From assembly GCA_040401595.1 (NCBI GenBank), contig JBBAOE010000003.1, positions 139,459 to 203,458 on the forward strand: a DNA stretch of 64,000 nt. The letters run 5' to 3'. The notes below the pieces were generated by a model that saw only the letters and a program-made list of their open reading frames with translations, did no database searches and was not told the DNA's origin. Position 1 is the first letter of the stretch; each line of letters opens with the position of its first letter. The position numbers and the translations under genes are program-made. The DNA is from Burkholderiaceae bacterium (GTDB lineage: Bacteria; Pseudomonadota; Gammaproteobacteria; Burkholderiales; Burkholderiaceae_E). Of the stretch, positions 1,545 through 22,891 are shown piece after piece.

Positions 1545-1586
1545 GTCTGGACTCCGGATAAGAGCCCGGATTAACGCAAGGCTTCA

Positions 1587-1604
1587 GTGACACCATCGTG
1601 AAAA
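1587..1604 (-). promoter_or_regulatory. Pho-box-like direct repeat upstream of phoD
   Basis: Read on the minus strand it is TTTTCAC-gatg-GTGTCAC. These are two 7-mers at 11-bp phasing, resembling the PhoB box CTGTCAT-N4-CTGTCAT. The box ends 43 bp upstream of the phoD ATG, where a -35 element would sit. Confidence 0.5.
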
Positions 1605-1729
1605 TCAAAGCCCGGGGTGCAACGCCATCGCGTTCGGTTGTTCGTCCTGACAGTACGCTCAGTCGTTATTTTTTATGAAACGGTCCTGTGCAGCAGAACA
1701 GCGGGTCTCGAGCCATGGGATCTCATGCC

Positions 1730-1747
1730 CTGTCACTGTCTTGACAT
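1730..1747 (+). promoter_or_regulatory. Pho-box-like direct repeat upstream of the btaA-like gene
   Basis: The plus strand reads CTGTCAC-tgtc-TTGACAT. It has the same orientation as the downstream gene and lies about 130 bp before ATG 1875. Confidence 0.45.
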
Positions 1748-1842
1748 GGTTGGTGTTCAGACTACTTCGAAGCGATAGCAACGGTTGATCCGATCTCGCC
1801 CGGTTATCCCCGCCATTGTTGATCGATGCCTCGACGCACTGT

Positions 1843-1872
1843 CCTGGAGAATTCTGGAGACCTCTGGAGAAT
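1843..1872 (+). repeat. Three tandem 10-bp units containing CTGGAGA
   Basis: The units are TCCTGGAGAAT, TCTGGAGACC and TCTGGAGAAT. CTGGAGA starts at 1844, 1854 and 1864, an exact 10-bp period. The last copy supplies a GGAGA Shine-Dalgarno 4 nt before ATG 1875. Confidence 0.6.
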
Positions 1873-1874
1873 TC

Positions 1875-3095
1875 ATGCAAGCGACTGATACCTCCACATT
1901 ACTTGCAGACGCCGTGTATGGGCACCGCGCGCAAGGTCATGTCGGCATTCTGGATCGACTCTTCGCGCGCTGGTTCGAGCGCTTGGTCTATACCCAAATT
2001 TGGGAAGATCCAGCCTGCGACCTCGAGGCCATGGCGGTCGAGTCCCATCATCGGATCATCACCATCGCATCGGCGGGATGTAATGCGTTGGCCTATTTGC
2101 TGGCGGATCCGGCGGAGGTGGTTGCAGTCGATCTGAATCGGGCGCATCTGGCACTGCTCGATCTGAAAGCGGGGGCGCTGCGGGCGTTCGACCATCATCA
2201 GGATTTCCTGGAAATGTTTGGCCGCGGCCATTCGAAAGCGAACATTGCACGGTTTCGCCAGCACATCGCACCGCTGCTCTCGGTCGAGGCGCGTCGTTGG
2301 TGGATGGCTCGGGATGCGTTTGGCCGACCCCGCATCAGCATGTTTACGACAGGCCTGCATCGGCATGGGCTGACTGGACGCTTCATTGGCATTGTTCATG
2401 CGTGGGCGCGCCTGCGAGGGGTTCGCCTCGAAGACTGGACGCTGGCCAAGACGCCCCAGGAACAGGCTGTCTGGTTTGATACCAAGGTCGCGCGACTCTT
2501 TGATGGTGCACTGGTCCGCCGACTTGCCGCTTCGCCTCCGGTTGTCTGGAATTTGGGTATCCCGCCGTCGCAGCATGAGGCGCTGTGCGACGGGGAGGTC
2601 CAGAGCATGGCGGGCGTATTGCGCGAGCGCGCTCGGCGTCTCGCAACGATCGCGCCGGTCGCTGACAACTGGTTTGCCTGGCAGGCATTCGCACGGCGAT
2701 ACAACGTCGAAGAGGGGCCCTTGCCGCCCTATCTGGAGGCGAAAGCCTTTGGGCTGCTGAAAACTCGGGTCGATCGATTGCAAATGGCCCATGAAAACCT
2801 GCGGGTGGTCTTGACCGGTCGTACGACCGCCAGCCTTGATCGTTTTGTGCTGTTGGACGCGCAGGATTGGATGTCAGACGATGAACTCGTTCGCCTGTGG
2901 CAAGAAATTACCCGGACGGCACGGCCAGGCGCACGCGTGATTTTCCGGACGGCCGGTGTTACATCTCCACTGGAGCGGGCATTGCCACGTGCGATCGCCG
3001 AACGTTGGCGGGCAGATCATGTCACGGCTGATCGACTGCATGCGCGCGATCGTTCTGCAATTTATGGTGGTTTTCATCTGATGCATCTGATTTGA
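1875..3095 (+). CDS. BtaA-like (DUF3419) S-adenosylmethionine:diacylglycerol 3-amino-3-carboxypropyl transferase family protein
   Basis: This is ORF 1785..3095 trimmed to ATG 1875, which has a GGAGA RBS. Motifs: RLVYTQIWEDP and ITIASAGCNALAYL (Gly-rich SAM-type), characteristic of the BtaA/DUF3419 family. The TTG at 1785 is probably not the real start. Confidence 0.75.
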   Translation: MQATDTSTLLADAVYGHRAQGHVGILDRLFARWFERLVYTQIWEDPACDLEAMAVESHHRIITIASAGCNALAYLLADPAEVVAVDLNRAHLALLDLKAGALRAFDHHQDFLEMFGRGHSKANIARFRQHIAPLLSVEARRWWMARDAFGRPRISMFTTGLHRHGLTGRFIGIVHAWARLRGVRLEDWTLAKTPQEQAVWFDTKVARLFDGALVRRLAASPPVVWNLGIPPSQHEALCDGEVQSMAGVLRERARRLATIAPVADNWFAWQAFARRYNVEEGPLPPYLEAKAFGLLKTRVDRLQMAHENLRVVLTGRTTASLDRFVLLDAQDWMSDDELVRLWQEITRTARPGARVIFRTAGVTSPLERALPRAIAERWRADHVTADRLHARDRSAIYGGFHLMHLI

Positions 3096-3097
3096 AG

Positions 3098-4270
3098 ATG
3101 CGTTTGAGCCCGGATCTGGCTGGCCACCGCCCTGGGGTGATACAAGCGGCCGGGATGGCCGATCCGATCGCTCTGCGGCCATGGATCAGCAATGCGGATG
3201 CGGTGTTGCAGATCGTGGCGACACCGTCAGGGGATGTGCCTGTCCTGATTCCAGATCGTTCTTTTAGTCTAAGCAATCGTTACGGTGCGAACTCAGAGCC
3301 GCCAACCCGGCTCGCCGAACGGGCCTGGGTTACGTGTCTTTGGTCGGGGTCAGCCGGTTATGCGATCGATGAATGGGCGGCCCGGCAGGATCCTCGCTGG
3401 GCCCGGGGCCTCAGGCCATTCGCACGGCTGACCGCCGGACTGTCCTGGATGCTGGGCCCGTGGCGGGGAGCGGTTCAGGTCGGGAGCTGGCCTTTATCGA
3501 CCAGTCTTCGCGAAACGCTGCAGGTGGTGGATTTGCTCGGGGTGCTCGATACTGCCATCGAGCGCTTTCCAGACTGCCCCATTGCGCTCCGGCATGTGTT
3601 TGCGGACAGCCCGCCCGAGTTGCTTGAAGCCCTGACGCAAAGGGGCTTTCGGGCGCTTCCCGCCCGCGTGGTCTACGACCTCGACGCTACTCAGGTCTGC
3701 AAGCCCAAGGCCTCTCATCTGAAGCGCGACCTCGCCCTGCTGGCGCGTTCAGACTTGACCGTGATCGCAGATTCCGACTTCACGCAAGAAGACATCGAAG
3801 CTGCGTTGCGCATGTATCAGGGGGTCTATCGACGCCGCCACAGTTTGCGTAATCCTGACTATTGCGCCGGTTTCATCCAGTGGACCCGGCAGCGCGGCTT
3901 GATTGAGTTGCTCGGTTTGCGTTCTGCAACAGGGGAATTACGGGCCTTCGCCGCCCGGCACGATCAGGGGGCGACGACGAGTGTGCCACTGCTTGGCTAC
4001 GATCTCGAGGCCGACCGTCGCGATGGACTCTATCGCCAACTGGTCGCGGCTCTGGTGCGTGAGGCTGGCGTTCGGAACCAGAGATTCGATTTCTCCAGCG
4101 GCGCTGGCGACTTCAAGCGTAAGCGCGGATTTGAACCACGACTGGAAATGACCATGCTGCGCGCGCCGTCCCAGTCGCTGCTGCAATGGCCTGTCGGGCT
4201 GGCCTTACGTCTCGCGGCAGCGGGAACATCGTTTCTGAGTATGGAACGGTTGATCGCCGCCGGTGCCTGA
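3098..4270 (+). CDS. GNAT-fold acyl/aminoacyl transferase, FemAB/CelD (BioF2-like) type
   Basis: ATG 3098 lies 3 nt after the upstream TGA (3093-3095). The C-terminal LYRQLVAALVREAG..FDFSSGAGDFKRKRGF resembles the FemAB/CelD-type acetyltransferase domain. Confidence 0.6.
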   Translation: MRLSPDLAGHRPGVIQAAGMADPIALRPWISNADAVLQIVATPSGDVPVLIPDRSFSLSNRYGANSEPPTRLAERAWVTCLWSGSAGYAIDEWAARQDPRWARGLRPFARLTAGLSWMLGPWRGAVQVGSWPLSTSLRETLQVVDLLGVLDTAIERFPDCPIALRHVFADSPPELLEALTQRGFRALPARVVYDLDATQVCKPKASHLKRDLALLARSDLTVIADSDFTQEDIEAALRMYQGVYRRRHSLRNPDYCAGFIQWTRQRGLIELLGLRSATGELRAFAARHDQGATTSVPLLGYDLEADRRDGLYRQLVAALVREAGVRNQRFDFSSGAGDFKRKRGFEPRLEMTMLRAPSQSLLQWPVGLALRLAAAGTSFLSMERLIAAGA

Positions 4271-4297
4271 ACGATTCGAGTTCAGTAGGATCCAGAC

Positions 4298-5230
4298 TCA
4301 GGCTGGGACCAGTAGCGCTCTTCGTTCCAGAATCTCGAATTCTTCGCCGCTCTGGCTTCCGGGTTTGCAATGCAGGATCTGCAACTCACCCGCATGCGTC
4401 TCCACGAGCGCAGTGAGGCTTTCAACCCAGTCCCCGTCATTGCAATACAGGATCCCATCAAGATCGTGAATGGCCGAGCGGTGAATGTGTCCGCACACGA
4501 CACCATCGAAGCCACGCCGACGCGCTTCCCCCGCCAGGGCCTGCTCAAAATTTGAAATGAACGAGACGGCGTTCTTGACCTTGTGCTTGAGGTATTGCGA
4601 GAGCGACCAGTACGGCTGACCGAGGTGATGCCGGAGTCGGTTGTAGTGGCGATTCAGCCATAAGGTGACGGTATAGGCGCGGTCACCCAGGTGTGCAAGC
4701 CATCGCGCATGGCGCATGACACCATCAAATTCGTCGCCATGCACGACCCATAAACGCCGTCCGTCCGCGGTCACGTGAACGGTTTCGGTAACGACTTCGA
4801 TCCCGCCGAACGCAAGACCGCCAAATTGCCTGGCCGCCTCGTCATGGTTACCGGGGATGTAGACGACCCGCGTCCCTTTACGGGCTTTGCGAAGCAGTTT
4901 CTGGATGACATCGTTGTGCGCCTGCGGCCAGAACCAGCGACGCTTCAGCGCCCATGCATCAACAATGTCACCGACCAGGTAGATTGTGTCTGCTTCGTAG
5001 TCGCGCAGAAACGCGAGCAGGGCCTCCGCCTGACACCCTGCGGTTCCGAGGTGAATGTCGGAGATGAAGACGGCACGCAGAGCATTGGGGGCAGCCAGGC
5101 TGTCGCCCTCGGAGGGTGTTAGCTGCGCCTGGCGTCGGTTTCCTGATCCGGCGCCGTGCTCAGAGCCCTCCAACAGGAGCTCATGGGCGATCAGATCCTT
5201 GAGCAGAGGCTGAGCGAGGGATGCATTCAT
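4298..5230 (-). CDS. Metallophosphoesterase of the LpxH / PlcP (phospholipase C) type
   Basis: Calcineurin-like motifs are present: VFISDIHLG, YLVGDIVD, IPGNHDE, VVHGDEFD and VCGHIH. Start is ATG at 5230. Confidence 0.8.
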   Translation of the reverse strand: MNASLAQPLLKDLIAHELLLEGSEHGAGSGNRRQAQLTPSEGDSLAAPNALRAVFISDIHLGTAGCQAEALLAFLRDYEADTIYLVGDIVDAWALKRRWFWPQAHNDVIQKLLRKARKGTRVVYIPGNHDEAARQFGGLAFGGIEVVTETVHVTADGRRLWVVHGDEFDGVMRHARWLAHLGDRAYTVTLWLNRHYNRLRHHLGQPYWSLSQYLKHKVKNAVSFISNFEQALAGEARRRGFDGVVCGHIHRSAIHDLDGILYCNDGDWVESLTALVETHAGELQILHCKPGSQSGEEFEILERRALLVPA

Positions 5231-5272
5231 GCCGGTTCCAGTTTGCCTGTGCCGGTATTAAACGGAACGCCT

Positions 5273-5290
5273 TTGACGGGATCATGACAA
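5273..5290 (-). promoter_or_regulatory. Pho-box-like direct repeat upstream of the PlcP-like gene
   Basis: The minus strand reads TTGTCAT-gatc-CCGTCAA. It ends 43 bp upstream of ATG 5230, the same spacing as at phoD. Confidence 0.5.
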
Positions 5291-5299
5291 CTGATGGTT

Positions 5300-6193
5300 T
5301 TAGGTTGGTTGTTGGTTTTTTGCGTTGTCCGGCAGAACCATCAGTGCCTGCCCCATCTGGATTCGCTGCCCTGACTGAATACCGTGCGCTAGGCGAAAGC
5401 CTTTGGGCGCAAACACGATGATGGTGGAGCCATGTTCGAACCAGCCCAGTTCTTCGCCCTTGCCAAATGCGTGAGCGCATGGAATTTCGTTGGGGCCTTT
5501 CCAACGCAGGTGCATCAGGATATTGATTGCATGAAGGCGGATGCTCGCAACCAGAACGGCGGCTACCGGGACGATTGCCAGCGGATGATTGGCTGCGCCG
5601 ATTCGGGTTCTGAGAACAGCTCGTTCGTTTTTGCAGAACAGACGCTCGACCCGCTTGAGAGCGATCGGGTTGACATTCCAGACGTCACCGCTGAGATAAG
5701 TAACGTGATCCAGTTGTCCATCGTAGGGGGCATGGAAGCGGTGATACATCGAGGAAGTCAATCTCAGGGTGACATAGGTCCCGTCGACAAACGGGCTAAT
5801 GTCCTGGGAAGGTCCGAATAATTCTCGAATTGAGTATGGATAGCCCTTGGCCTGAAAGACCTCTATCCCCCGTACATCTCCACAGGCGCCCACGATTGCA
5901 TCGCATGGACTGCTGAGCGTATCGGGATCATGATCGACGCGCCGGGCCCCGGGCTTTAGTTCCCGGATGAAGCACTCGCGCAAACTGTTGAACCGTTGCT
6001 GACGGGCTTCCGAGAGATCGAGATCTGTGAAGACTCGCCAGACGGCAATGGAAAATCGCGTCAGTAGAGGGCTTCGGATCGCGCTGTATCGACCCATCCA
6101 CTGCGTTAGCAAGATCCGCGGGATTCGGTTGGTCAGCAGAAAATTCAGGTCTTCCTGAAGAAAAAGACGATCACGCAATCTGGAGAGCTTCAT
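5300..6193 (-). CDS. Phosphatidylserine decarboxylase family protein (pyruvoyl-dependent)
   Basis: Motifs: MYHRFHAPYDG, SGDVWNVNP and C-terminal GWFEHGSTIIVF, which carries the G-S-T self-processing site typical of Psd proenzymes. Confidence 0.8.
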   Translation of the reverse strand: MKLSRLRDRLFLQEDLNFLLTNRIPRILLTQWMGRYSAIRSPLLTRFSIAVWRVFTDLDLSEARQQRFNSLRECFIRELKPGARRVDHDPDTLSSPCDAIVGACGDVRGIEVFQAKGYPYSIRELFGPSQDISPFVDGTYVTLRLTSSMYHRFHAPYDGQLDHVTYLSGDVWNVNPIALKRVERLFCKNERAVLRTRIGAANHPLAIVPVAAVLVASIRLHAINILMHLRWKGPNEIPCAHAFGKGEELGWFEHGSTIIVFAPKGFRLAHGIQSGQRIQMGQALMVLPDNAKNQQPT

Positions 6194-6243
6194 CGTTTCG
6201 TCAAATCCCAGTGTTATAAAACAGTGACAACATTGCGGAGGCG

Positions 6244-7902
6244 TTGAACATCATGGAAGCTTTAGCCATGTCTGCGTTGGCTCTCGGTACCCTGGCTGCA
6301 GGTTGGCCGGCCGCCTCGCAGCGAATTGCGCTGTCGCGGGCCAAACACCGCTCGCTGGCGGGTCACTCGAGAATGGCCAAGCGAGTGGCGTCGCTGATCC
6401 CTGGATACAGCTACGACGAGACTGGTTTTTTCGCGGCCGATGATGCATCCCCAGAAATCGTGGCGCGGCGACGCGCTGGTTTTCTCGATCTCTGCCAGAC
6501 GCTCGGAACGCGCCATGCCAAGACCATCGCCATGAGCGATCAGGCGCGCGACTATCTTCCCGATATGCAATTCACCGGTCGTTACCGGGTACCGTTTCAG
6601 TTCAGCCCGTACCTGCGCAGTCATCTTAAGCTGGGCAGCTTTGTGCAGTCGTCCGCTGGCGTGACGGTTGAGGATCTGGATGGCCAGAGATTCATGGATC
6701 TCACTGGTTCTTACGGTGTCAATGTATTTGGCTATGATTTCTATAAAGAAACGATTGCCGAAGGCGTTTCTCGCGTGGCTGAGCTGGGGCCAGTGCTGGG
6801 CGCCTACCATCCGGTCGTTCTGGATGTCATCAAGCGCCTGCGCGTCATCTCCGGGCTTGAGGAGGTGAGCTTCCACATGTCGGGCACCGAGGCGGTGATG
6901 CAGGCCGTGCGCGTTGCCCGTTACCGGTCCGGGCGGACGCATCTGGTCCGATTCTGCGGCGCGTATCACGGCTGGTGGGAGGACGTGCAACCTGGCCCGG
7001 GTAACCCCTTGCCGCCCCGACAAACCTATACGCTGCAGGACCTCTCTGAGCGGTCGTTGCGTGTGCTTGAGACGCGGCGCGATATTGCCTGTGTGCTGAT
7101 CAATCCGCTGCAGGCACTGCACCCCAACGCCAGCGCGCCTGGCGATTCGACCCTGGTCGACAGTTCGCGTCGGGCCGGATTTGATCGGGCCGCCTATGCG
7201 TCGTGGTTGCGTGAACTGCGTCGAATTTGTACCGCACGCGGTATCGCGCTGATTTTTGATGAGGTCTTTTTGGGGTTCCGGCTGGCACCGGGTGGTGCGC
7301 AGGAGTATTTCGGCGTGCAGGCGGATCTCGTCACCTACGGCAAGACGCTCGGCGGCGGCCTGCCGGTCGGTGTCGTGTGCGGCAAGCGCGAGTGGATGCA
7401 ACGTTTCAATGAGCAGCATCCGGCCGATCTCTGCTTTGCGCGCGGGACCTTCAACGCGCATCCACATGTGATGGGCGCAATGTTGTCGTTTTTGGAGCGA
7501 CTCGAAACGCCCGAGGTCCAGGCGATTTATGCTGATCTCGATAACACTTGGAACCGACGTGCGCAGGAGCTCAATGAGCGGCTCCGACAGGCTGGCGCTC
7601 CGGTGCGGGTCACGAATCTTTCGACGGTCTGGACGGTGCTCTACGACTCCCCGTCGCGCTACAACTGGATGTTCCAGTTCTACTTGCGGGCCGAAGGCTT
7701 GTTGCTCAGCTGGGTCGGCAGTGGCCGATTGATTTTCAGTCTGAACTATCACGACACTGATTTCGAAGAAGTGGCCGAGCGCTTTTGTCGCGCCGCACAG
7801 GCGATGCGACGCGACGGCTGGTGGTGGGAAGGATCGCAACTGAGCAATCAGCAGATTCGACGCACCCTGTTGCGGGAAATGCTGGGTCGGCTGCGCGCTT
7901 AA
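6244..7902 (+). CDS. Class-III (glutamate-1-semialdehyde aminomutase-like) PLP aminotransferase with an N-terminal extension
   Basis: Motifs: HMSGTEAVMQAVRVAR, FDEVFLGFR and YGKTLGGGLP (PLP lysine). At 552 aa it has about 100 extra N-terminal residues that begin with a hydrophobic stretch. The start is uncertain: TTG 6244, ATG 6253 or ATG 6268. Confidence 0.85.
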   Translation: MNIMEALAMSALALGTLAAGWPAASQRIALSRAKHRSLAGHSRMAKRVASLIPGYSYDETGFFAADDASPEIVARRRAGFLDLCQTLGTRHAKTIAMSDQARDYLPDMQFTGRYRVPFQFSPYLRSHLKLGSFVQSSAGVTVEDLDGQRFMDLTGSYGVNVFGYDFYKETIAEGVSRVAELGPVLGAYHPVVLDVIKRLRVISGLEEVSFHMSGTEAVMQAVRVARYRSGRTHLVRFCGAYHGWWEDVQPGPGNPLPPRQTYTLQDLSERSLRVLETRRDIACVLINPLQALHPNASAPGDSTLVDSSRRAGFDRAAYASWLRELRRICTARGIALIFDEVFLGFRLAPGGAQEYFGVQADLVTYGKTLGGGLPVGVVCGKREWMQRFNEQHPADLCFARGTFNAHPHVMGAMLSFLERLETPEVQAIYADLDNTWNRRAQELNERLRQAGAPVRVTNLSTVWTVLYDSPSRYNWMFQFYLRAEGLLLSWVGSGRLIFSLNYHDTDFEEVAERFCRAAQAMRRDGWWWEGSQLSNQQIRRTLLREMLGRLRA

Positions 7903-8105
7903 GTTGACCAAGCGCAGCCTCTATCGTATTTGGCGAGGGCTGCGCTCTGTTGCGTAAGCGGTGCGGTCTTCTCCGGGGCAGAACGGCCATTAGACAAGGC
8001 CGGCGCTTACGGCCTCAGCACCCAGACTTCAGATGTCTGTCGCGACTTCGTCGTTCCGTCCCGCTGTCCCGTGCTGTGACGTTCCAGGGGGGCCGCGCTG
8101 CGTGT

Positions 8106-8828
8106 TCAGGCGTGCCGATTGGACGGGTCGGTCACGTGGTCCATCGGGTCAATGCGCTGCCCCCGCAACAGAAAGAGCGGGGCCGTGTGGTACATCTTGA
8201 TGTCATGAAACGGGTCGGTGATGATCTTGAATGCCCAAGCGATCGCTGTTTTGGCGTCTCGGATCACGACCAGTTGTGCAACCCGGAACAGCAGGCCGCC
8301 AACCCCGATCGCGAACCAGACAAGACCGACCGAATGCCAGAACTCTGACATGGTGGTCCAGGCTGGGAGTGCACCAAACAGGTCCGGCACGAACCAGACG
8401 ACCAGGGGGCTCGCCGCCCACAATCCCATCAATACCACCTTGCGCATCAGGTTGTAGCCCACCTTGATTTCTTCCTTGTGCTCGTGGGTCGCTTGATTCA
8501 CCTCGTCGTAGCCTTTGGGCTCGAAGAAGAAATGTCCAGCCTGCCGACTCGTCATCGACACGCCCCATGCCAACAAGGCGGCATAGGCCGGGTCCACGAA
8601 CAAGAGCGCGTACGCCGTGACAAAGCACAGCGCGCTCAGGAGATGGAGGCTCTGGTTGATTCGGCAATGATGGTAGTAGCGATGATCGTCCCAGCGCAGG
8701 ACCGCGAGCGATTCAAAAAACTCTTTCACGTGGTTACCATCAAAAAGAATGACCTCAGGGTCTTCGGTCACAGTTGACAAAATCCAGCCGCTTGCCGCGA
8801 GCGCACTGCTTAGGGTGTGCCGCCTCAA
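8106..8828 (-). CDS. Polytopic membrane protein of unknown function (His-rich motif)
   Basis: It has several hydrophobic helices and a YYHHCRINQSLHLLSALCF motif, followed by AGHFFFEP. I could not place it in a family with confidence. The start (TTG 8828) is uncertain. Confidence 0.55.
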   Translation of the reverse strand: MRRHTLSSALAASGWILSTVTEDPEVILFDGNHVKEFFESLAVLRWDDHRYYHHCRINQSLHLLSALCFVTAYALLFVDPAYAALLAWGVSMTSRQAGHFFFEPKGYDEVNQATHEHKEEIKVGYNLMRKVVLMGLWAASPLVVWFVPDLFGALPAWTTMSEFWHSVGLVWFAIGVGGLLFRVAQLVVIRDAKTAIAWAFKIITDPFHDIKMYHTAPLFLLRGQRIDPMDHVTDPSNRHA

Positions 8829-8861
8829 ACGCTGCCATAAGGCTCATCTTGTCTAGGATTT

Positions 8862-8890
8862 GTGACATCTTGCTGACAGAAAAATGACGA
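8862..8890 (-). promoter_or_regulatory. Triple phased Pho-box-like array upstream of the membrane-protein gene
   Basis: The minus strand reads TCGTCAT-tttt-CTGTCAG-caag-ATGTCAC, three 7-mers at exact 11-bp phasing. Confidence 0.55.
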
Positions 8891-8917
8891 ATTGATGTCA
8901 TTTCTCGGTAGCATCGA

Positions 8918-8935
8918 CTGTCATCACATTGTCTC
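8918..8935 (+). promoter_or_regulatory. Pho-box-like direct repeat upstream of the glycosyltransferase gene
   Basis: The plus strand reads CTGTCAT-caca-TTGTCTC, with an additional ATGTCAT half-site at 8895-8901. It overlaps the TTG 8929 given in the ORF track, which argues for ATG 8959 as the true start. Confidence 0.4.
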
Positions 8936-8958
8936 AGTCCGCTTGCAGAATTCGGCTC

Positions 8959-11298: not shown

Positions 11299-11361
11299 GA
11301 TCGGGGTTCGCTTCGTTGCTGTGGGCTAAGTTCTCAGGGATCGGTGATCCGTTTTCAGTGA

Positions 11362-12363
11362 TCAGGCCGGCCAGCCAACGATCACGGCGATTCGCGCCAA
11401 TGACCAGTAGGCGGCAATCGCCCCGATCCCGTAGAGCGCGGGCACTTTGAGTTGCGCCGCGAGTTTGGTGCGAACCAGCAGCAGGGTCAAACCCCAGGCC
11501 AGGGCCACCACCAGCAACTGGCCAGCCTCAACGCCCAGATTGAAGGTCAGTAGTGCCATCGAGACATGTTGTTCAGGCAGGCCAATTTCCTTCAAAGCGC
11601 CTGCGAACCCGAGACCATGAACAAGTCCAAATACAAAGGCAACCAGCGCCGGCCAGCGCCGGGTCCAGGTCTCGCGTTGGTAGAGCGCTTCGGCGCTGAC
11701 CAGGACGATCGACAGGGCAATCGAAGCCTCGACGGGCGGGGATCGCAGCACCAGGAGTCCGAGCGCACTGGCTGCAAGGGTCACGCTGTGTGCGAGCGTA
11801 AACGCCGTGATCGTCGCAATCAGGCGTTTACGAAATCCAACCAGAAACAAGAGGCTGATGACAAAGAGCAGATGATCGAAGCCGGTCAGGATATGTTCGA
11901 TCCCGAGTGAAAAATAGGCGGTAGCCACTTCGCTGCCGGCTCTCTCGTCCTTGGCGCTGCCAAAGAGCTGGACTTTGGGCTGTGCGCTCGTCAGAGTTAC
12001 CACTTGACGATCACCGCTTCGCCAATAGATCCGAACGATCGCGGCGGAATACGCTTTACCGACGCCCTGGATCGATAACATTCCGGCGAGCCCCTTGGGC
12101 CCACACTGGATCAGTTGTTGATCACCCGCGCACCCTTCGGGCCAGCTCGGGCTCAGATCCTCCCCGATCGGGCGGCCCCCCTTGCCGGCGGCGCCCCAGG
12201 ACCAGATGAACTGACCCGGTGCGACTTCGCGCATCGTCATTTCGGCCATGGTCAGCTCATGGGCGTGGGCCACTGAAACACCGAACCCTACCAGGGCGAC
12301 GAGGAGCATCAGGCGTTTCAGAAGCCATTGCGCCAGGGCGCTGAGCCCAGAGTTTGGCGCCAT
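11362..12363 (-). CDS. HupE/UreJ-like metal-transport membrane protein with an N-terminal periplasmic domain
   Basis: The signal peptide ends AHA|HE. The C-terminal half carries GFDHLLFVISLL, AFTLAHSVTLA and GLVHGLGFAG. ATG 12363 overlaps the upstream TGA by 1 nt. Confidence 0.7.
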   Translation of the reverse strand: MAPNSGLSALAQWLLKRLMLLVALVGFGVSVAHAHELTMAEMTMREVAPGQFIWSWGAAGKGGRPIGEDLSPSWPEGCAGDQQLIQCGPKGLAGMLSIQGVGKAYSAAIVRIYWRSGDRQVVTLTSAQPKVQLFGSAKDERAGSEVATAYFSLGIEHILTGFDHLLFVISLLFLVGFRKRLIATITAFTLAHSVTLAASALGLLVLRSPPVEASIALSIVLVSAEALYQRETWTRRWPALVAFVFGLVHGLGFAGALKEIGLPEQHVSMALLTFNLGVEAGQLLVVALAWGLTLLLVRTKLAAQLKVPALYGIGAIAAYWSLARIAVIVGWPA

Positions 12364-13241
12364 CAAGGCTTCACCTCTTCTTCGCGAATCTTGTACTTCT
12401 TACCCATTTCGCGAACCGCATTCGTACTGAGTTGGGCCATGGTGTCGTCGCGCCAATCCTGATAGATCGCGTCTTTGTTCTTGTCGAACTCGGCAGGCAC
12501 ACCAGGCTTGATTTCCTCTAGCTGTATCACCCGCAGCCCATCGGTACTTCCGATCAACTGCCAGACGCCAGGGGTCGACTTTTCAATGGCTTCGGTAAAC
12601 TCTGCCCCGTAGCTTTGCACCAGATTTTGCCGGGGGCGGTCCTTGAAGACCCGCAAGCTGCTTTCGGCGTCGATTTTCCCCTTGCCATTGAGCGCGGCAA
12701 CGAACTTCGTCAGGGCCTCAGGCGATCGATCACTGGTGACTACTGCTTCGAGAAAATTAAATCGTATTGGCGTGTCGTAGCGATCACGTTTGGATTCAAA
12801 CCATTTGCGAACGCCGGCTTCATCAATCTTGGGAAGGGTGAGTCCAGATTGGGTCACGCTCAGGGACTTGAAAATGATCCGGTCGCGGATTGCCGAATCG
12901 CCCCGGTCCAGACCCAGCGCCAGGCCTTCGCGATAGAGCACTTCGTTATCGACCCATCGATCCAGGAGTGTTTTCAGTTCGGCCTCGCTTGGCTCGCGCT
13001 TCAAGCCGCCGGTGAAAATGTCGTGGGCTTCTCTCTTGACCGATTTCGAGATCGTGATCGTTTGGGGGTCGTCCTTGTCAAGACTCAAGGTGTGGTCAAC
13101 GCCAAACACCAAAGCACCCAGCACCATAAAATGCAGCAAGGGTTCACGCAACATGCGGGACAGGGGGCCGTCTGTGCGGTTCGTCGAGGAGGCCGAAGCA
13201 GCACCTGGGACTGGGGCGTTTTGAGGATCCATGGAATTCAA
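12363..13241 (-). CDS. Membrane-anchored PpiC/SurA-like peptidyl-prolyl isomerase family protein
   Basis: EPLLHFMVLGALVFG forms an N-terminal anchor, and the rest resembles rotamase-type proteins that I recall as frequent neighbours of HupE-like genes (from memory). Alternative start is ATG 13232. Confidence 0.5.
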   Translation of the reverse strand: MNSMDPQNAPVPGAASASSTNRTDGPLSRMLREPLLHFMVLGALVFGVDHTLSLDKDDPQTITISKSVKREAHDIFTGGLKREPSEAELKTLLDRWVDNEVLYREGLALGLDRGDSAIRDRIIFKSLSVTQSGLTLPKIDEAGVRKWFESKRDRYDTPIRFNFLEAVVTSDRSPEALTKFVAALNGKGKIDAESSLRVFKDRPRQNLVQSYGAEFTEAIEKSTPGVWQLIGSTDGLRVIQLEEIKPGVPAEFDKNKDAIYQDWRDDTMAQLSTNAVREMGKKYKIREEEVKP

Positions 13242-13248
13242 CGAGGGT

Positions 13249-15915
13249 TCAGCGGGAGTTGGGGGATGGAGTCGGCCGGATCGCCGCCAGCGCGTTCAGG
13301 ACCTCACTGGCGACACCGGGTTCGTTACCCAGCAGGGACCGTGCAAGCGTGAACAGGGGATCGTACGCGGGCAGAAAATCGGGGCTTTGCTGGAGAATGT
13401 CCAATAAAGGCTCGCGTAATCGCAGGAGCATGTTTAGCGGGTCGGGATCGGGCCGCACTGTCAATCCCAATTCAATGTAGCGCGCCCGCGCCGACCCGTA
13501 GGCTTGCAGGCGTTGAAGCGTCTCCTCTGAGGCGTCACGCAAGACGCTATCGGGCTTCAGCTGCAGTTGATGGACGAGGGTCATCAGGCGGGTTCGTGGC
13601 GTTTCCGTAGGCGCATAGGTTTCCCACGGCGCATCATGAATCACGGCAGGCCGATCATCGGTGTTTGGCATGACCTGACCGGCGAACGCCCGCAGCTCCT
13701 CGGGTCCTGCAAGGATGCTGCCGAGAATGGCGTATTCGTCAACCACGCGCGCCTGTATCAGCGGCCGATGCAGCGCGGGGGCCGCTTTGAGCAGACTCGC
13801 CCGAACCCAGTCGGGATTCCAGCGCGGCTGATCCGGTCGCGAGAGCAAACCCAGCACGGGGGTGTCCAGACTGTTGCTCGCCAACACGGCGACCGCATCC
13901 GGATACACCTTCAAGAAGGCGGCAGTGATGCTGCGCACCGTCTGCAGGTTCATCTGATGGACCGCGAGCCACTGGCAAAATAATCCGCCGGGCGCTAGCT
14001 GTCGGCGAGCAGCTGCAAAATGCTCGACGGTATAGAGCGAGCCCGCGCCGCTGCGCGCCGGATGAAAGAGATCGGCAACGATGACGTCGTACTGTACCGG
14101 CGACGCCTGCACGTACCGTCGGGCATCGGCCGCGAGAATCTTCAGGGGCATGTCATCCCGCGCGGCGCTGGGTTTCGGCGCAAAGAACGCTGCAGCCTCA
14201 ATCACTTCGGGCAGCAACTCCACCGCAGTGACTTGCAAATCCGCGTTCAATGCGGCGGTCTGCGCCGTATGCCCTGTGCCAAGCCCTAGAAAGAGTGCGC
14301 TGCGTGGCGCCGGATGCAGCAGGATGGGTAGTTCAGCGAGCCGCACTTCCACCGGACTACGGGCACTGCTGCCTTCCTGAGTACGATTGTTGATCCGCAA
14401 GCGGGCGATGCCGCTTGGATCTTCAACGATGCTCACCGCTGCCATCGTGCCATCGCGATAACTCTGGAGCGTCGACCCCTCTGGCATGTCGACGAATCGC
14501 AGGGGCGACGCCCAGAGGCCAACTGCTATCGCTGCCAGTGCAGACAACGCGACGCGAGGCTGGAACCAATTGATTCTCGAATGTAGCGCGAGATAAGCGC
14601 CGATGATGATGCTCAAGATCCATTTCGGCCCAACCAGGGGGATCAGGCCGACGCCAAACAGGAGCGGTGCGCAGGCAGCCCCGGTGGTGTTGACAGCGAG
14701 CGCTCGCCCGAGCGGCCAGGACTGCGCTTGAGCGCGCTGGCACAGATGGGTGAAGAGCGCGCCCATGATCAGGGTCGGGGCCAACATCGCGGCGACCGCC
14801 GTCAAGGCCTCACCGGTCAGTGCAGTGAGCGCGCTCGCGCCAAAGGTACGTGCCGGCCATGCGCAGATGACATCCGCCCACCACAGCGTTGCGCCGCCCA
14901 ACAAAATCGCGGCGGCGAGGCCTTGAATCAGCGTGCTCTCGGTGGCGTCGTTTGCTGGTGGTTTGCGCGCTTGCAGGAGGGCAGCGCCCAGTGCAGTCCC
15001 CAGCAAATAAACCGCCAGCAAGAGTGCGTAGCTGTAGACCGTATTTTCGGTGACCTGGCTCAGAACGCGCACCGCGAGCACTTCGTAACCGATGCCGAGT
15101 AGCCCGGTGAAGAACAGGACTCGGCCAATGACCGGATGCTGGGTGTCTGCGCCCGGCGTCATCGCATTGCGTGCTGTGGTTTGATCCTTTGCAGGGGTGG
15201 CCATAGCCTCCAGTGGCGTTCGCCAGAGCGACAAGGCCAGTACAGCGCAAGCTGCATTGATCGCGCTGCACACCCAAGCGGTTTGTTGCAGTCCGAGCGT
15301 CGGCATAGCCACAAACACGACCGCCAAGACACCCAGTACCGCACCGAGGGTGTTCGCGGCATACAGCCCGCCGAGTCGACTCGCGGCGCCCGATAGTTGA
15401 CGCTCAATCGCGGGTAGCGTTGCACCCATCGCAGCGGTTGCCGGCAGCAGCAGCAGCATGGGAAAGCCAAACGCGAGGCACCAGTGCCAGAGGCTCGAAG
15501 GCTGCGCGCCGATCATTGCGTGGGTGGTGTGATTGAACCAGGGCAATAGGGCTGTCAGGACCAGCCCCCACAGCGCGATGAGTGTCTCAAGGGCGGCGTA
15601 CCAACGGCCCGGGACCCGACTGGCGGCAATCGATCGCCCCAACACAAAGGCGCCGATTGCCAGTCCGCCGAAGAACGCAGCAAGAACGGCGAGCACGGCA
15701 ATGATCTCGTGCCCCAGTGCTGTCGCCAGTTGCGCGCTCCAGAGCATTTGCCAGGCAAGCGACACGGCGCCCGAGAGCGCCATCAATAGGTAAGGCAACA
15801 GAGGACCTTTCAGCGCAGTGAGTCGACGCGTTGAGTAAGCGATCGACGAAAACGAAAAACCGGCCGCAGGGCCGGTGGTCAGGCCATGGTCACGAGCCCG
15901 AAGGCCCGTAACCAT
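13249..15915 (-). CDS. Fused polytopic membrane domain / spermidine-synthase-like aminopropyltransferase fold protein
   Basis: The 888-aa protein has an N-terminal half of about 450 aa that is highly hydrophobic. The C-terminal half carries LFLGLGTGHT, YDVIVADLFHP and GGLFCQW (SpeE-like SAM fold), followed by a helical repeat-like tail. Confidence 0.75.
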   Translation of the reverse strand: MVTGLRARDHGLTTGPAAGFSFSSIAYSTRRLTALKGPLLPYLLMALSGAVSLAWQMLWSAQLATALGHEIIAVLAVLAAFFGGLAIGAFVLGRSIAASRVPGRWYAALETLIALWGLVLTALLPWFNHTTHAMIGAQPSSLWHWCLAFGFPMLLLLPATAAMGATLPAIERQLSGAASRLGGLYAANTLGAVLGVLAVVFVAMPTLGLQQTAWVCSAINAACAVLALSLWRTPLEAMATPAKDQTTARNAMTPGADTQHPVIGRVLFFTGLLGIGYEVLAVRVLSQVTENTVYSYALLLAVYLLGTALGAALLQARKPPANDATESTLIQGLAAAILLGGATLWWADVICAWPARTFGASALTALTGEALTAVAAMLAPTLIMGALFTHLCQRAQAQSWPLGRALAVNTTGAACAPLLFGVGLIPLVGPKWILSIIIGAYLALHSRINWFQPRVALSALAAIAVGLWASPLRFVDMPEGSTLQSYRDGTMAAVSIVEDPSGIARLRINNRTQEGSSARSPVEVRLAELPILLHPAPRSALFLGLGTGHTAQTAALNADLQVTAVELLPEVIEAAAFFAPKPSAARDDMPLKILAADARRYVQASPVQYDVIVADLFHPARSGAGSLYTVEHFAAARRQLAPGGLFCQWLAVHQMNLQTVRSITAAFLKVYPDAVAVLASNSLDTPVLGLLSRPDQPRWNPDWVRASLLKAAPALHRPLIQARVVDEYAILGSILAGPEELRAFAGQVMPNTDDRPAVIHDAPWETYAPTETPRTRLMTLVHQLQLKPDSVLRDASEETLQRLQAYGSARARYIELGLTVRPDPDPLNMLLRLREPLLDILQQSPDFLPAYDPLFTLARSLLGNEPGVASEVLNALAAIRPTPSPNSR

Positions 15916-15929
15916 GTTCGCGGGTCAGA

Positions 15930-18065
15930 TTACTTGACGCCGGCAACCTTGCTCGAACCCAAAACTTCGACGTAGACCGGGTTGCTGTAGAACCAGAGGT
16001 CAGACCAGGCAACGACGTCAGAACTCGAGTACTTGACGCCAGCGACCGTACGCATGTGGGCTGGGCATGCTGCGTCGCCACAAGGGATTGCCCCCGGGAG
16101 GGTCTGGTCGTTCGGAGCCACTAGGAAGTCATTCAGTGGATTGCCCTCAGCATCGGTCTCGAACGGCACCGATGCTGGGATGTTGGTTCCGCGCAGACGG
16201 AAGTACTGCGATGCTTTCACAGCCGGAACCCGATAGGTCATCGTGCGGACACCATCCGCTGAAGCCGTCCAATTCGTTGAATTGAAGGTTTTCTGGATCT
16301 TCGCCGAGGCATTGAAGATCTTTGCGGGGAATTCGGCTGCTGTCACCGCAGGCGCATAGGCGCCCTGATCAGCAGGATCAATGTAGCCCGTGACATTGCC
16401 ACCGATCAGATCAACGTGATCGAGCACCGGCGCATTCAGAGGCTGGATGATGTTGACCTGCTTGAGGGACGGATTCGGGAAGCTGTAAGGTGATGCGTTC
16501 GTGCCCTGCGGATCGCGCAGAGAGACGGTGACGAACAGGTCGGTACCCGGGCGAACGACGAGCTTTTCGCCCATGGTGGCGCAACCGTCGATCCGCACCT
16601 CACCATTACCGGCAACCGCATTGGCAGACGCTTTCTCGATCAGTGCCTTGTTGGCATTGCGCGGCAGGCCTGGGTTCGACGCGCAGACCACGAACGACAG
16701 GCGATCGATCAGTTGCCCATTGGCAACGTAGCTGTTGCCACTGCGCAGACCGTCGATGATGCCTTCGGCGGTCAGGTTGCCTGTGCCCTTGCGAACCATG
16801 ACATAGTCATTGGTGTATTCGCCGGGGTAGAAATCGTTGTCGGTTTCGCGCTGGTCGGGACCGAAGGTGCCACGGCTGTGGTAGTCCGAGCTTGCAAAGA
16901 ACCACCAGTTACGGCCTTCGCCCAGCAGACCGTCCCATAATCCACCGATCTTGGCCGCGTAAACGCCCGTGCCGCCAAAGGTGCCGCCGCCTACAGCGTT
17001 CGACGAATAGCTGCCGCGCGGGGATTCCGCACCGTGGCCAGGCATTGACTCGAAACCAAACGCAATCTTTGGGGCTACGTTGTTGAAATTACGCAGGTGC
17101 TCGATGTTGAAGCCGTTGTTGCCGGTCGGGTTATAGATGCCGGCACGCTCGAGGTGGGCTGGAACGAAGTAGGACGTCGTTGGCGCCTTCTCGTTCAACC
17201 ACTTGAGGCCTTCCAAGGTCTTGATATGCCCCATGTTGGGGTACTTGGCGGTGTTGGTTCCGCTCAAGTTGTCAGTCGGCGCGATTTTGGCGGACAGGGG
17301 ATTGATCAGCGTGTTGTTCGAGCTGCCGGTGACCGAGCAATCCCAGAGGTTCTCAGCGCCGCGGCTGGTGTCGGTATCACTGCGATCAAAGCAATATTCG
17401 TATTGCGCCTGAAGGTTGGCGTTACCGGTTGTTGCGGTCGACGGCCAGGGTGCCTGACCTTTAAGCACGGCCATCGAGGTGTGCTCATGGCCGGGGTTGT
17501 TTTGCTCGAGTCCGATCCAGACTGGCTTCTTCGCATCACGGCCAAGGGTTTCAAGGGCTTTGTATTGATATTCCTTGATCTCCTGCCAGCGCCACATCTG
17601 CTTCGGTGTAGCGGTTCCGTCGCCCTTGATGGCGGCGAGGCCAATCGTGGATTCCCAGGTCTGGTTCGGTCCTTTGAGAGCCGAGGCGGGCTGGCCAGCC
17701 CCCGGGTAGGTCACTGGTGGCGAAGCCTGCCAGGGGCCGGTGGCGCTGGTGGTCAGTCCCAGACCGGGCGCGACCGGCTCAAACGGGTCTTCGGCCAGCG
17801 TACAGTTTCGAGCGCTGCGGCCACCGTGGTCGGCCTGGACGAACCAGTCGAGCTTCCAGGTGTTGACCGATTTGTCGACCAGCTTCTTGAGCGAAAGCGA
17901 GCCATCCGAGCAAGTCGAGTGGTTGTGGAAGTCACCGGTGACATAGGTGCCAGCGGCCTTGGTGGCGGCCTTTGGGGCAGCCGAGGCTTGCGGGGCAAGG
18001 GTCACGACGGTCGTGATGGCGGCGATCGCAACAGCGACTTCGCGCATTTTAAACTGGGGCTTCAT
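15930..18065 (-). CDS. Secreted PHP-domain (polymerase/histidinol-phosphatase fold) metal-dependent phosphoesterase-like protein
   Basis: The signal peptide ends QASA|AP. Ordered PHP-like motifs are GDFHNHSTCSDGS, FVQADHGG, GLEQNNPGHEH, VPAHLER and ASSDYHS. A long beta-rich C-terminal region follows. Confidence 0.6.
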   Translation of the reverse strand: MKPQFKMREVAVAIAAITTVVTLAPQASAAPKAATKAAGTYVTGDFHNHSTCSDGSLSLKKLVDKSVNTWKLDWFVQADHGGRSARNCTLAEDPFEPVAPGLGLTTSATGPWQASPPVTYPGAGQPASALKGPNQTWESTIGLAAIKGDGTATPKQMWRWQEIKEYQYKALETLGRDAKKPVWIGLEQNNPGHEHTSMAVLKGQAPWPSTATTGNANLQAQYEYCFDRSDTDTSRGAENLWDCSVTGSSNNTLINPLSAKIAPTDNLSGTNTAKYPNMGHIKTLEGLKWLNEKAPTTSYFVPAHLERAGIYNPTGNNGFNIEHLRNFNNVAPKIAFGFESMPGHGAESPRGSYSSNAVGGGTFGGTGVYAAKIGGLWDGLLGEGRNWWFFASSDYHSRGTFGPDQRETDNDFYPGEYTNDYVMVRKGTGNLTAEGIIDGLRSGNSYVANGQLIDRLSFVVCASNPGLPRNANKALIEKASANAVAGNGEVRIDGCATMGEKLVVRPGTDLFVTVSLRDPQGTNASPYSFPNPSLKQVNIIQPLNAPVLDHVDLIGGNVTGYIDPADQGAYAPAVTAAEFPAKIFNASAKIQKTFNSTNWTASADGVRTMTYRVPAVKASQYFRLRGTNIPASVPFETDAEGNPLNDFLVAPNDQTLPGAIPCGDAACPAHMRTVAGVKYSSSDVVAWSDLWFYSNPVYVEVLGSSKVAGVK

Positions 18066-18127
18066 GTCGATGAAATCCTGTAGATCAATGGTGGGGGTCT
18101 GCGTCAGGCCGTGGATGGCGCTGAGGC

Positions 18128-18616
18128 TTAAACGTTCTTCTGGTCGCCGAACAGGCGTACCTTGCCGCTGCTGAACTTCACCGGGATGGTGTAGGTCGTG
18201 GTCGTCGTGTCAACGTCGGTGTTCGTGACCGTCGCGGTCAGCGTGCAGACGCCGTTGGCATCACATCCAGATACCGTTACGCCCGATAAGTCGGCGATTG
18301 GGAAGGCCGACAAATCGGCCGCAACCGCAACCGCGAAGGATTCCTGAGTCAGGTTGTCTTTCAACGCCTGTTTGGTGTAACCAGCGTCCAGAAACGCGTC
18401 ATCGAAGAGGTCGACGAATCCACTGCTGGTCAGGCCGCTGAAGGACTTGAGCCCTGCGATCCCGGCGTTATAGCTGGCGGTGAACGCTGCTACCTGATCG
18501 GTCGTTGGGGCAGTGCTGGTGGAACCTGAGCTTGTTGACGAGTCACCACCGCAAGCGGTTAGCAGGCTCAGCAGGCCAGCGGCGAGCGACAGCTGGGCGG
18601 TCTTGCAAATTGTCAT
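18128..18616 (-). CDS. Lipoprotein of unknown function
   Basis: This is ORF 18128..18691 trimmed to ATG 18616. It reads MTICKTAQLSLAAGLLSLLTACGG (lipobox LTAC), followed by a Ser/Thr-rich linker. Confidence 0.65.
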   Translation of the reverse strand: MTICKTAQLSLAAGLLSLLTACGGDSSTSSGSTSTAPTTDQVAAFTASYNAGIAGLKSFSGLTSSGFVDLFDDAFLDAGYTKQALKDNLTQESFAVAVAADLSAFPIADLSGVTVSGCDANGVCTLTATVTNTDVDTTTTTYTIPVKFSSGKVRLFGDQKNV

Positions 18617-18762
18617 GAGATCGCAACCTTCAAAAAATCTTGGGGGGGTCCGGTGGGAACCGGTTTTGTTTTGCATTCGGCCAGTCCGCAAGGTAGGTGC
18701 GCCGATGGCACTACCCCACTCAAACTGAGGAGGGATTGTCCGGTCGGGCCCATGACGCTCGT

Positions 18763-18791
18763 GTGACGTTCAAATAAACGTTTTATGACGG
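18763..18791 (-). promoter_or_regulatory. Triple phased Pho-box-like array upstream of the lipoprotein-PHP operon
   Basis: The minus strand reads CCGTCAT-aaaa-CGTTTAT-ttga-ACGTCAC, three 7-mers at 11-bp phasing. The first 11 nt match the enterobacterial CTGTCATAAAA apart from one base. Confidence 0.55.
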
Positions 18792-22880: not shown

Positions 22881-22891
22881 GAGTGTCATTC

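Follow-up and report, generated by a model that had tools for sequence, protein, structure and literature searches.

The first 19 kb of a 64,000-nucleotide stretch of contig JBBAOE010000003.1 (the whole of which is referred to here as the window) contain six promoters that carry 7-bp direct repeats separated by 4-bp spacers. These arrays are very likely PhoB-type Pho boxes. As proposed in a first-pass annotation, a single phosphate-starvation regulon would thus cover phoD, a membrane-lipid cluster, and a seven-gene operon that includes a secreted PHP-like protein. This proposal is supported by the motif, its orientation, its spacing from a -10-like hexamer, phylogenetic footprints, and the content of the genes that follow. 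The host is an uncultured freshwater betaproteobacterium, probably a Comamonadaceae-like member of the Burkholderiales. As a yardstick independent of the sites quoted in that annotation, matches were counted against the E. coli consensus CTGTCAY-N4-CTGTCAY with a threshold of at least 11/14. The six predicted arrays, each read 5' to 3' on the strand of the gene it precedes, are as follows.

1587..1604, minus strand: phoD Pho box, TTTTCAC-gatg-GTGTCAC, two units, 11/14 consensus matches.
1730..1747, plus strand: Pho box of the BtaA-like gene, CTGTCAC-tgtc-TTGACAT, two units, 12/14 matches.
5273..5290, minus strand: Pho box of the PlcP-like gene, TTGTCAT-gatc-CCGTCAA, two units, top matrix score (16.9 bits).
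8862..8901, minus strand: array of the histidine-rich (His-rich) membrane protein gene, ATGACAT-caat-TCGTCAT-tttt-CTGTCAG-caag-ATGTCAC, four phased units.
8918..8935, plus strand: Pho box of the GT4 glycosyltransferase gene, CTGTCAT-caca-TTGTCTC, two units, 12/14 matches.
18752..18791, minus strand: array of the seven-gene operon, CCGTCAT-aaaa-CGTTTAT-ttga-ACGTCAC-acga-GCGTCAT, four phased units.

The first-pass annotation had quoted the bases, coordinates, and strands of these arrays correctly; the 7-4-7 (11-bp) register is followed in all six, and every array is oriented in the same direction as its downstream gene. It had undercounted the units at two promoters. The three proximal units of the His-rich array stand as quoted, and a fourth in-phase unit, ATGACAT (8901 to 8895), lies distal to them. 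The three distal units of the operon array stand as well, and a proximal fourth unit, GCGTCAT (18758 to 18752), had been overlooked. Indeed, the best-conserved part of the operon array is the pair ACGTCAC-acga-GCGTCAT, which includes that unit. Each promoter thus has between two and four units. Adjacent pairs, taking the best one in each array, agree with the consensus at 11-12 of 14 positions at five promoters and at 10 of 14 at the operon promoter. The plus-strand reading of bases 8895-8901, ATGTCAT, was considered as a distal unit for the GT4 gene and rejected, as it lies 23 bp from the next unit and is out of phase. These bases were given to the His-rich array because the minus-strand reading is in phase there.

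Start codons of the His-rich, GT4, and lipoprotein genes (the last being the first gene of the operon) were shifted downstream on orthologue evidence, and the TTG starts at 8929, 8828, and 18691 were dropped for ATG 8959, GTG 8729, and ATG 18616. The GTG at 8729 for the His-rich protein is set by orthologues of 92-94% identity, the TTG at 8929 falls inside the GT4 box, and the ATG at 18616 agrees with lipoprotein homologues of 161-162 aa with a lipobox. The equal distance claimed for the phoD and PlcP-like boxes holds: each box has its last base 43 positions short of the A of the ATG, leaving 42 intervening nt.

In the whole window, both strands considered, 16 sites reach the 11/14 threshold. 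Six of these fall within the 1,276 bp of intergenic DNA in the 1-19 kb region, where 0.30 would be expected, and none of 1000 dinucleotide-preserving shuffles reached six. The ∼61 kb of coding DNA holds ten, or 0.16 per kb versus 4.6 per kb in the flagged spacers. The first-pass annotation had named coding DNA matched as often as promoters as the outcome that would count against it; coding DNA is in fact hit less often. Its statement that comparable arrays are lacking in the intergenic DNA between 19 and 64 kb is likewise borne out, for those 1,660 bp contain no consensus site and give a best matrix score of only 6-7 bits. When a half-site matrix was built with one region left out at a time and the 128,000 positions of the window were ranked, every held-out spacer contained a site ranked 4th to 15th, with shuffle p values of 0.002-0.021. 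A prior-free count of 5-mers showed TGTCA to be the most enriched in the flagged spacers (11 observed versus 1-2 expected). The pattern GTCA-N7-GTCA occurs seven times in the window, and four of these occurrences lie inside the flagged promoters.

A -10-like hexamer is found 10-11 nt past every array at all six promoters. All six hexamers end in T, and their mean match to TATAAT is 3.83/6 versus 1.85 for random intergenic positions; 0 of 20,000 resamples reached 3.83. In the E. coli phoA promoter, the box CTGTCATAAAGTTGTCAC is followed by 10 nt and then by TATAGT. The predicted hexamers of the window are given below.

1570..1575, minus strand: phoD, GTTAAT, preceded by TGC (extended -10-like), 11 nt after the box.
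1758..1763, plus strand: BtaA-like gene, CAGACT, 10 nt after the box.
5257..5262, minus strand: PlcP-like gene, TTTAAT, 10 nt after the box; relatives have T[TC]TAAT.
8846..8851, minus strand: His-rich gene, CAAGAT, 10 nt after the array; the same in L004 and L005.
8946..8951, plus strand: GT4 gene, CAGAAT, 10 nt after the box and 7 nt before ATG 8959.
18735..18740, minus strand: operon, GACAAT, 11 nt after the array; the least certain of the six.

At the GT4 gene, exactly 7 nt separate the end of the hexamer from the ATG, and there is no Shine-Dalgarno sequence; the distances from box to hexamer and from hexamer to ATG are both kept in related loci L004, L005, L016, and L018. This 7-nt distance, shared with the four related loci, suggests that the GT4 mRNA is leaderless. 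In the 5' leader of the BtaA-like gene (1842-1874), the ribosome-binding region consists of three tandem copies of CTGGAGA(AT/CC)TC, as against a single copy in relatives (GGAGAATTCATG).

Related loci for footprinting (denoted by L and a number) came from a genome scan, a metagenome scan with the BtaA-like protein, and homologue look-ups for the lipoprotein and PhoD. Synteny of both the lipid cluster and the operon is kept across these loci. All six boxes are conserved islands in orthologous promoters, the proteins being 77-90% identical, whereas the flanking intergenic DNA has diverged or bears indels. The phoD box is kept as TTTTCAy-gatN-GTGTCAC, together with TGCGT[TC]AAT, in L106 (90% identical) and L107 (84%), and its -10 region (TGCGTTAAT / TGCGTCAAT) is conserved in both; the 10-11 nt between box and -10, and the upstream flank, vary. 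For the BtaA-like gene, TTGTCAC-caNc-TTGACAy followed by 10 nt and CAGAAT is observed in L013-L019 and L022 (88-90% identical) despite a different upstream gene, and in L020 (79%) the promoter reads GCGTCAC-catt-GTGTAAT, 10 nt, CAGACT. The PlcP-like box, TTGTCAT-gat[cg]-CCGTCAA, is near-invariant in L013, L016-L018, L021, and L049; its sole variable position is the fourth base of the spacer (C or G), while both flanks diverge.

The spacer between the divergent His-rich and GT4 genes was compared across L004, L005, L016, and L018. There the His-rich array is kept almost base for base, and two blocks are near-invariant, namely TTTGTGACrTCTTrsTGACAGAAAAATGACGAATTGATGTCA and, on the GT4 side, CTGTCATCAyAkTGTCTCAGTCCG...GCAGAATT. 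The indels of this spacer amount to 33 bp between the blocks and 86 bp toward the His-rich gene. Relative to L004 and L005, an additional 86 bp are inserted in the window between the His-rich array and the gene it serves (8730-8861), and 33 bp, or three helical turns, are missing between the divergent box blocks (8902-8917).

The gene order of the operon is the same in L005, L092-L100, and L109-L112. Four good units, CCGTCAC-aaaa-TTTTCAT-tccg-GCGTCAC-gggc-CCGTCAT, precede it in the L100 group. Only the proximal pair, ATGTCAC-acgc-ACGTCAT, is kept in the L092 group, where the distal units have degenerated. The proximal pair persists to a lipoprotein identity of 49% and across a shift in GC content from 61% to 69-71%. 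Forward boxes predicted before the operon in more distant relatives are these.

L109/L110 (69% GC; lipoprotein 49% identical): GTGTCAT-gaaa-CCGTCAC.
Variovorax terrae: CCGTCAT-cgaa-CCGTCAC.
Xylophilus rhododendri: CCGTCAC-gcat-TCGTCAC.

Some additional features were noted in these loci. In L108, which derives from a 98%-identical strain, the BtaA-like gene and phoD are separated by an inserted 422-aa open reading frame (ORF) that may be a mobile element (7845-10004); the insertion removes the BtaA Pho box, and phoD there is split into two ORFs. Genes for TonB-dependent receptors often neighbor the units with Pho boxes (L111 7132-9219, L112 7114-9213, L106 2192-4345, L108 11283-13571, and L013-L019). 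In Variovorax and Xylophilus such a gene is transcribed divergently from the seven-gene operon, and in the relatives of the window it adjoins phoD or the BtaA-like gene. The receptor gene of Variovorax also has an Mpo1-like gene beside it.

Two weaker candidate boxes, absent from the first-pass annotation, lie between a phosphatidylserine (PS) decarboxylase-like (psd-like) gene and a divergent aminotransferase-like gene.

6187..6204, plus strand: candidate Pho box of the aminotransferase gene, GCTTCAT-cgtt-TCGTCAA, 12.3 bits.
6213..6230, minus strand: candidate Pho box of the psd-like gene, TTGTCAC-tgtt-TTATAAC, weak (10/14, 11.0 bits).

The aminotransferase candidate is followed by 10 nt and then TATAAA (6215-6220). 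The psd-like candidate has a poor putative -10, GACGAA, with no more than 3 nt between it and the annotated ATG. Nearly all of this 50-bp spacer (6194-6243) is conserved in relatives, with few substitutions, though their other spacers vary; the footprint is therefore uninformative there. Note that the spacer holds an extended -10-like sequence, TGTTATAAA, in addition to the two candidate boxes on opposite strands. If these candidates are counted, all transcription units in the 1-19 kb region are boxed and none are in the 19-64 kb region.

Evidence from other taxa bears on the nature of the regulator. Among non-redundant metagenomic loci with BtaA-like proteins (43-99% identical), a forward box of at least 11/14 is present within 250 bp upstream in 29 of 54, and a reverse box in only 7 of 54; shuffles would be expected to give 1.2. 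Three loci have phoB within a few kb of the BtaA-like gene, and in two of these (L033 and L035) pstB and phoU are also nearby. In the latter two, which belong to an unrelated taxon of 50% GC, the BtaA-like/GNAT gene pair sits beside pstA-pstB-phoU-phoB-phoR, and the divergent spacers on either side contain densely clustered Pho-box-like repeats in both orientations (3736-3773 and 5850-5878).

PhoB is known to recruit sigma-70 RNA polymerase at phoA and pstS of E. coli. In the proposed mechanism, at low phosphate phosphorylated PhoB, an OmpR-family winged-helix protein, would bind the 11-bp-phased yyGTCAy-N4 repeats head-to-tail. The repeats would sit where a -35 element is expected, with a weak -10 hexamer 10-11 bp downstream of them, and the bound PhoB would recruit sigma-70 RNA polymerase. 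The predicted targets are the secreted PhoD, the cluster for membrane-lipid remodeling, and the seven-gene envelope operon built on a secreted PHP-like metallohydrolase. Within the lipid cluster, the PlcP-like phospholipase would make diacylglycerol, and the BtaA-like and GNAT, PS-decarboxylase-like, aminotransferase-like, Mpo1-like, and GT4 proteins would lead to phosphorus-free lipids. Because conserved boxes precede the phosphatase, the lipid cluster, and the operon, all are very probably co-induced when phosphate is exhausted.

Several observations weigh against this assignment. The half-sites TTTTCAC, TTGACAT, TTGTCTC, and CGTTTAT are degenerate, and the 4-bp spacers (gatg, tgtc, gatc, caat, tttt, caag, caca, aaaa, ttga, and acga) are A/T-rich in some cases only, unlike those of E. 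coli; contact with an A/T-rich Pho-box spacer is made through the minor groove. The operon -10 is poorly conserved, with relatives having CAACCT, GATCCT, or TGACAT at 10 nt. Coding sites at 37601 and 53075 score as high as the real boxes, and thus the matrix alone is not fully specific. These two sites (37601-37618, plus strand, ACGTCAG-tgga-CTGTCAT, 15.1 bits; 53075-53092, plus strand, CTGTCAC-ttta-GCGTCAA, 14.3 bits) lie within coding sequence, antisense to the host gene and without a downstream gene start; they were rejected as extra boxes and treated as chance. Lastly, pst, phoB, phoR, and phoU were found neither in the window (Pfam, ∼55 ORFs) nor in the loci of this lineage. A tblastn search of the loci with approximate sequences of E. 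coli PhoB, PhoU, and PstB gave matches only in the unrelated taxa of L033, L035, and L043. Contig L108, which extends to the left of the window, carries TonB receptor, NikR, acyltransferase, and ABC genes and no pst genes. Since no such pst or pho gene accompanies the arrays in this lineage, PhoB as the regulator is an inference. The low-phosphate signal and the roles of the individual enzymes are likewise inferred.

Could the arrays serve another regulator of the OmpR/PhoB family, CreB-like or a lineage-specific paralogue, that responds to envelope, metal, or carbon status rather than to phosphate? Direct repeats with 11-bp phasing at -35 are common to the whole OmpR family, and the cognate regulator gene is not seen in the window or in the loci of the lineage. 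The cre tag is TTCAC-N6-TTCAC, and the phoD site includes TTCAC-N6-GTCAC. The operon, moreover, encodes the metal-handling proteins PCuAC and HupE/UreJ. Most units, however, are yyGTCAy, which is the PhoB core and not TTCAC; phoD and the PlcP-like, BtaA-like, and lipid GT4 genes make up a textbook phosphate-starvation set; and equally boxed BtaA-like genes adjoin pstB-phoU-phoB in other taxa. Such a regulator is considered unlikely. It is quite unlikely, too, that only the PlcP, His-rich, GT4, and BtaA arrays function, with the phoD box, the distal operon units, and the psd/aminotransferase candidates conserved for other reasons or in genomes that are simply too close. This would accord with the poorer consensus match at phoD (11/14) and in the operon pairs (10/14) than at the 12/14 sites, the operon region's leave-one-out shuffle p of only 0.021, the near-complete conservation of the psd/aminotransferase spacer without footprint contrast, and the degenerated distal units of the L092 group. 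Yet the phoD box and its -10 are kept at 84-90% protein identity while the DNA between and upstream varies, and the proximal operon pair survives to 49% lipoprotein identity and from 61% to 69-71% GC. The notion that the arrays are chance matches picked from AT-richer intergenic DNA draws on the tolerance of the reader for many mismatches, the selection of sites after the fact, and the ∼80 sites in the window that reach 10/14. It has next to no probability: the observed counts were never attained in dinucleotide-preserving shuffles of the same spacers (0/1000), the spacers of the 19-64 kb region are as AT-rich and have none, and the sites show cross-species conservation and a fixed -10 spacing. 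The shuffles, the leave-one-out matrix, the -10 resampling, and the footprints together refute it. PhoB-type Pho boxes are the preferred interpretation.

The window has a GC content of 60.7%. By the GT4 protein, the nearest genome records are two metagenome-assembled genomes from lakes that are labelled "Betaproteobacteria bacterium" (77% identical), and the source taxa named for homologues are Rhodoferax, Ramlibacter, Variovorax, and Xylophilus, all Comamonadaceae-like Burkholderiales. The gene map of the first 19 kb is as follows.

3-1544, minus strand: phoD, PhoD-like phosphatase (Pfam PhoD, 1.9e-91), with a Tat-type signal RREFL; truncated at the window edge.
1875-3095, plus strand: BtaA-like DUF3419 gene (Pfam DUF3419, 1.4e-98, 331 bits).
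3092-4270, plus strand: gene for a 392-aa GNAT-fold protein, translationally coupled to the BtaA-like gene.
4298-5230, minus strand: PlcP-like metallophosphoesterase (Pfam Metallophos; NCBIfam LpxH-like equivalog match below cutoff).
5300-6193, minus strand: PS-decarboxylase-like (psd-like) gene (Pfam PS_Dcarbxylase).
6244-7902, plus strand: class-III aminotransferase/aminomutase-like protein, 552 aa (Pfam, NCBIfam).
8106-8729, minus strand: His-rich membrane protein, 207 aa, weakly Mpo1-like (Pfam Mpo1-like match below threshold).
8959-10239, plus strand: GT4 glycosyltransferase of the lipid-glycosyltransferase type (Pfam).
10208-18616, minus strand: seven-gene operon.

In homologues, full-length PhoD is 610 aa. 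The nearest NCBIfam models for the GT4 protein are GlcNAc-PG synthase and monoglucosyl-diacylglycerol synthase, both below cutoff. The 19-64 kb portion of the window holds genes of general metabolism. Divergent from the operon promoter, at 18935-26071, is a cluster of the xanthine-dehydrogenase/carbon monoxide-dehydrogenase type that encodes 2Fe-2S, molybdopterin, and FAD subunits, a CoxD-like AAA protein, a CoxE-like VWA protein, and XdhC. It is retained as a neighbor in L092-L103, and no box is directed at it.

The operon genes, in order of transcription, are listed next.

18128-18616, minus strand: lipoprotein (first).
15930-18065, minus strand: secreted PHP-like protein, 711 aa (second).
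13249-15915, minus strand: fused major facilitator superfamily (MFS)/spermidine-synthase-like protein, 888 aa (third).
12363-13241, minus strand: peptidyl-prolyl isomerase (PPIase) (fourth).
11362-12366, minus strand: HupE/UreJ_2 protein (fifth).
10675-11298, minus strand: 2-oxoglutarate (2OG)-Fe(II) oxygenase (sixth).
10208-10678, minus strand: PCuAC protein (seventh).

The 711-aa protein has a signal peptide and the motif DFHNHSTCSDG. Its residues H47-x-H49, H80, E187, H193/H195, H280, H304, and D394-x-H396 are invariant in 30 homologues and could fit a PHP-type metal site, which is made up of an H-x-H near the N terminus, E and H ligands in the interior, and a D-x-H toward the C terminus. 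Weak matches to CehA/McbA (3.8e-9) and PHP (0.0037) both fall below cutoffs, and searches gave no Pfam match at E≤1 and no useful sequence match in the PDB. The AlphaFold2 model has a predicted local distance difference test (pLDDT) score of only 61, and Foldseek against the PDB returned no match at E<0.001, only Ig-like β-sandwich noise. More than 2,800 homologues exist, labelled "hypothetical." A secreted PHP-like phosphoesterase with metal-handling partners would, speculatively, be sensible in a Pho regulon. The operon, with its PHP/DUF3604-like metallohydrolase, could encode a new extracellular organophosphate-scavenging enzyme together with metal-supply and maturation proteins of its own; its order of genes and a forward Pho box are kept across Comamonadaceae-like Burkholderiales.

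The lipid module shows a second unusual arrangement. The family of the 392-aa protein is GNAT-fold and Acetyltransf_6/LPG_synthase_C-like, with the L020 homologue matching at 4.8e-9; sequence searches of the PDB with the 392-aa and His-rich proteins gave nothing useful. Its pairing with the BtaA-like protein recurs in L023-L045, from many distant taxa, often with PlcP and GT4 genes. A PlcP-like gene near GT4 and BtaA-like genes is seen in the window and in L023, L031, L039, L075, and L077. In another lineage (L048, L050, and L052) the psd-like, aminotransferase-like, His-rich, and GT4 genes are again conserved alongside those for the BtaA-like and PlcP-like proteins. The lipid cluster of the window contains no S-adenosylmethionine-dependent methyltransferase (BtaB) by Pfam or NCBIfam. 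As the partner of the BtaA-like protein is GNAT-fold, and as the classical loci L057 and L059 carry a BtaB-type methyltransferase in that position instead, this is not a canonical operon for diacylglyceryl-trimethylhomoserine (DGTS). Its gene content indicates that the product is probably not DGTS, and the BtaA-like/GNAT pairing suggests a phosphorus-free lipid of another kind. The BtaA-like, GNAT (FemAB/MprF-C-like), psd-like, aminotransferase-like, and Mpo1-like proteins could together form a module for a phosphorus-free amino lipid that is not DGTS.

With this analysis, what began as a hunch from the sequence becomes a well-supported predicted regulon map for an uncultured freshwater betaproteobacterium. 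The Pho regulon itself is of an expected, well-known kind, and the modest novelty is that two little-known gene sets acquire a predicted inducing condition. The seven-gene operon and the BtaA-like/GNAT lipid module may be two undescribed systems within it, a suggestion that is put forward tentatively. Phosphate starvation is the condition predicted for ∼10 genes without assigned function, including the 711-aa family and the BtaA-like/GNAT module. The E. coli-type PhoB promoter layout of box, 10 bp, and -10 hexamer appears to hold in this lineage. Culturable relatives, namely Variovorax terrae and Xylophilus rhododendri, provide entry points. The work could lead to new phosphorus-scavenging enzymes and to new surrogate lipids in phosphorus-limited lakes.

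The E. coli Pho box consensus is CTGTCAT-A(AT)A(TA)-CTGT(CA)A(CT), and sites confirmed by chromatin immunoprecipitation include TTTTCATAAATCTGTCAT and CTGTCATAAAGTTGTCAC (PMC3465305). PHO boxes are built from 7+4-nt units that are bound head-to-tail (PMC4415409). The arrays of the window resemble the PhoB promoters of E. coli pstS, phoA, and phoB in their 7-bp repeats, 4-bp spacer, TGTCA core, two to four units, and orientation with the gene. They also resemble the E. coli layout, as in phoA, in that the boxes end 10-11 bp before a -10 hexamer without a -35 element. Indeed, the phoD box, TTTTCAC-gatg-GTGTCAC, is similar to the E. coli phoB box, TTTTCAT-aaat-CTGTCAT. The window differs from E. 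coli in that its units more often begin with CC, TC, or TT and that CGTCA is as frequent as TGTCA; the latter fits a genome of 61% GC.

Lipid-remodeling clusters with PlcP are found in Sinorhizobium meliloti, SAR11, roseobacters, Pseudomonas aeruginosa, and Burkholderia cenocepacia (PMC4796936, PMC8528852, bioRxiv 10.1101/2023.05.30.542800). For marine bacteria, Pho boxes close to plcP clusters were predicted earlier (PMC4796936), and plcP-agt-dagK of Burkholderia is induced by phosphate depletion (bioRxiv 10.1101/2023.05.30.542800). As in those clusters, the PlcP-like gene of the window lies near genes for a GT4 lipid glycosyltransferase and a BtaA-like protein with predicted Pho boxes. Here, however, the genes do not form one shared operon but have separate predicted Pho-box promoters, one for each gene or gene pair, and the cluster adds PS-decarboxylase-like, 552-aa aminotransferase-like, and Mpo1-like genes and has no dagK. 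The DUF3419/BtaA-family gene is preceded by a Pho box as in the btaA-btaB DGTS operon of Rhodobacter, Sinorhizobium, and Agrobacterium, whereas its downstream partner is a GNAT-fold protein and not the BtaB methyltransferase. Finally, Pho boxes were predicted upstream of olsB in Burkholderia sensu lato (PMC7814305). That prediction concerned other genes, for ornithine lipid, and reported no footprint or -10-spacing analysis; like the present one, it places a bioinformatically predicted Pho box before genes for phosphorus-free lipids in Burkholderiales.

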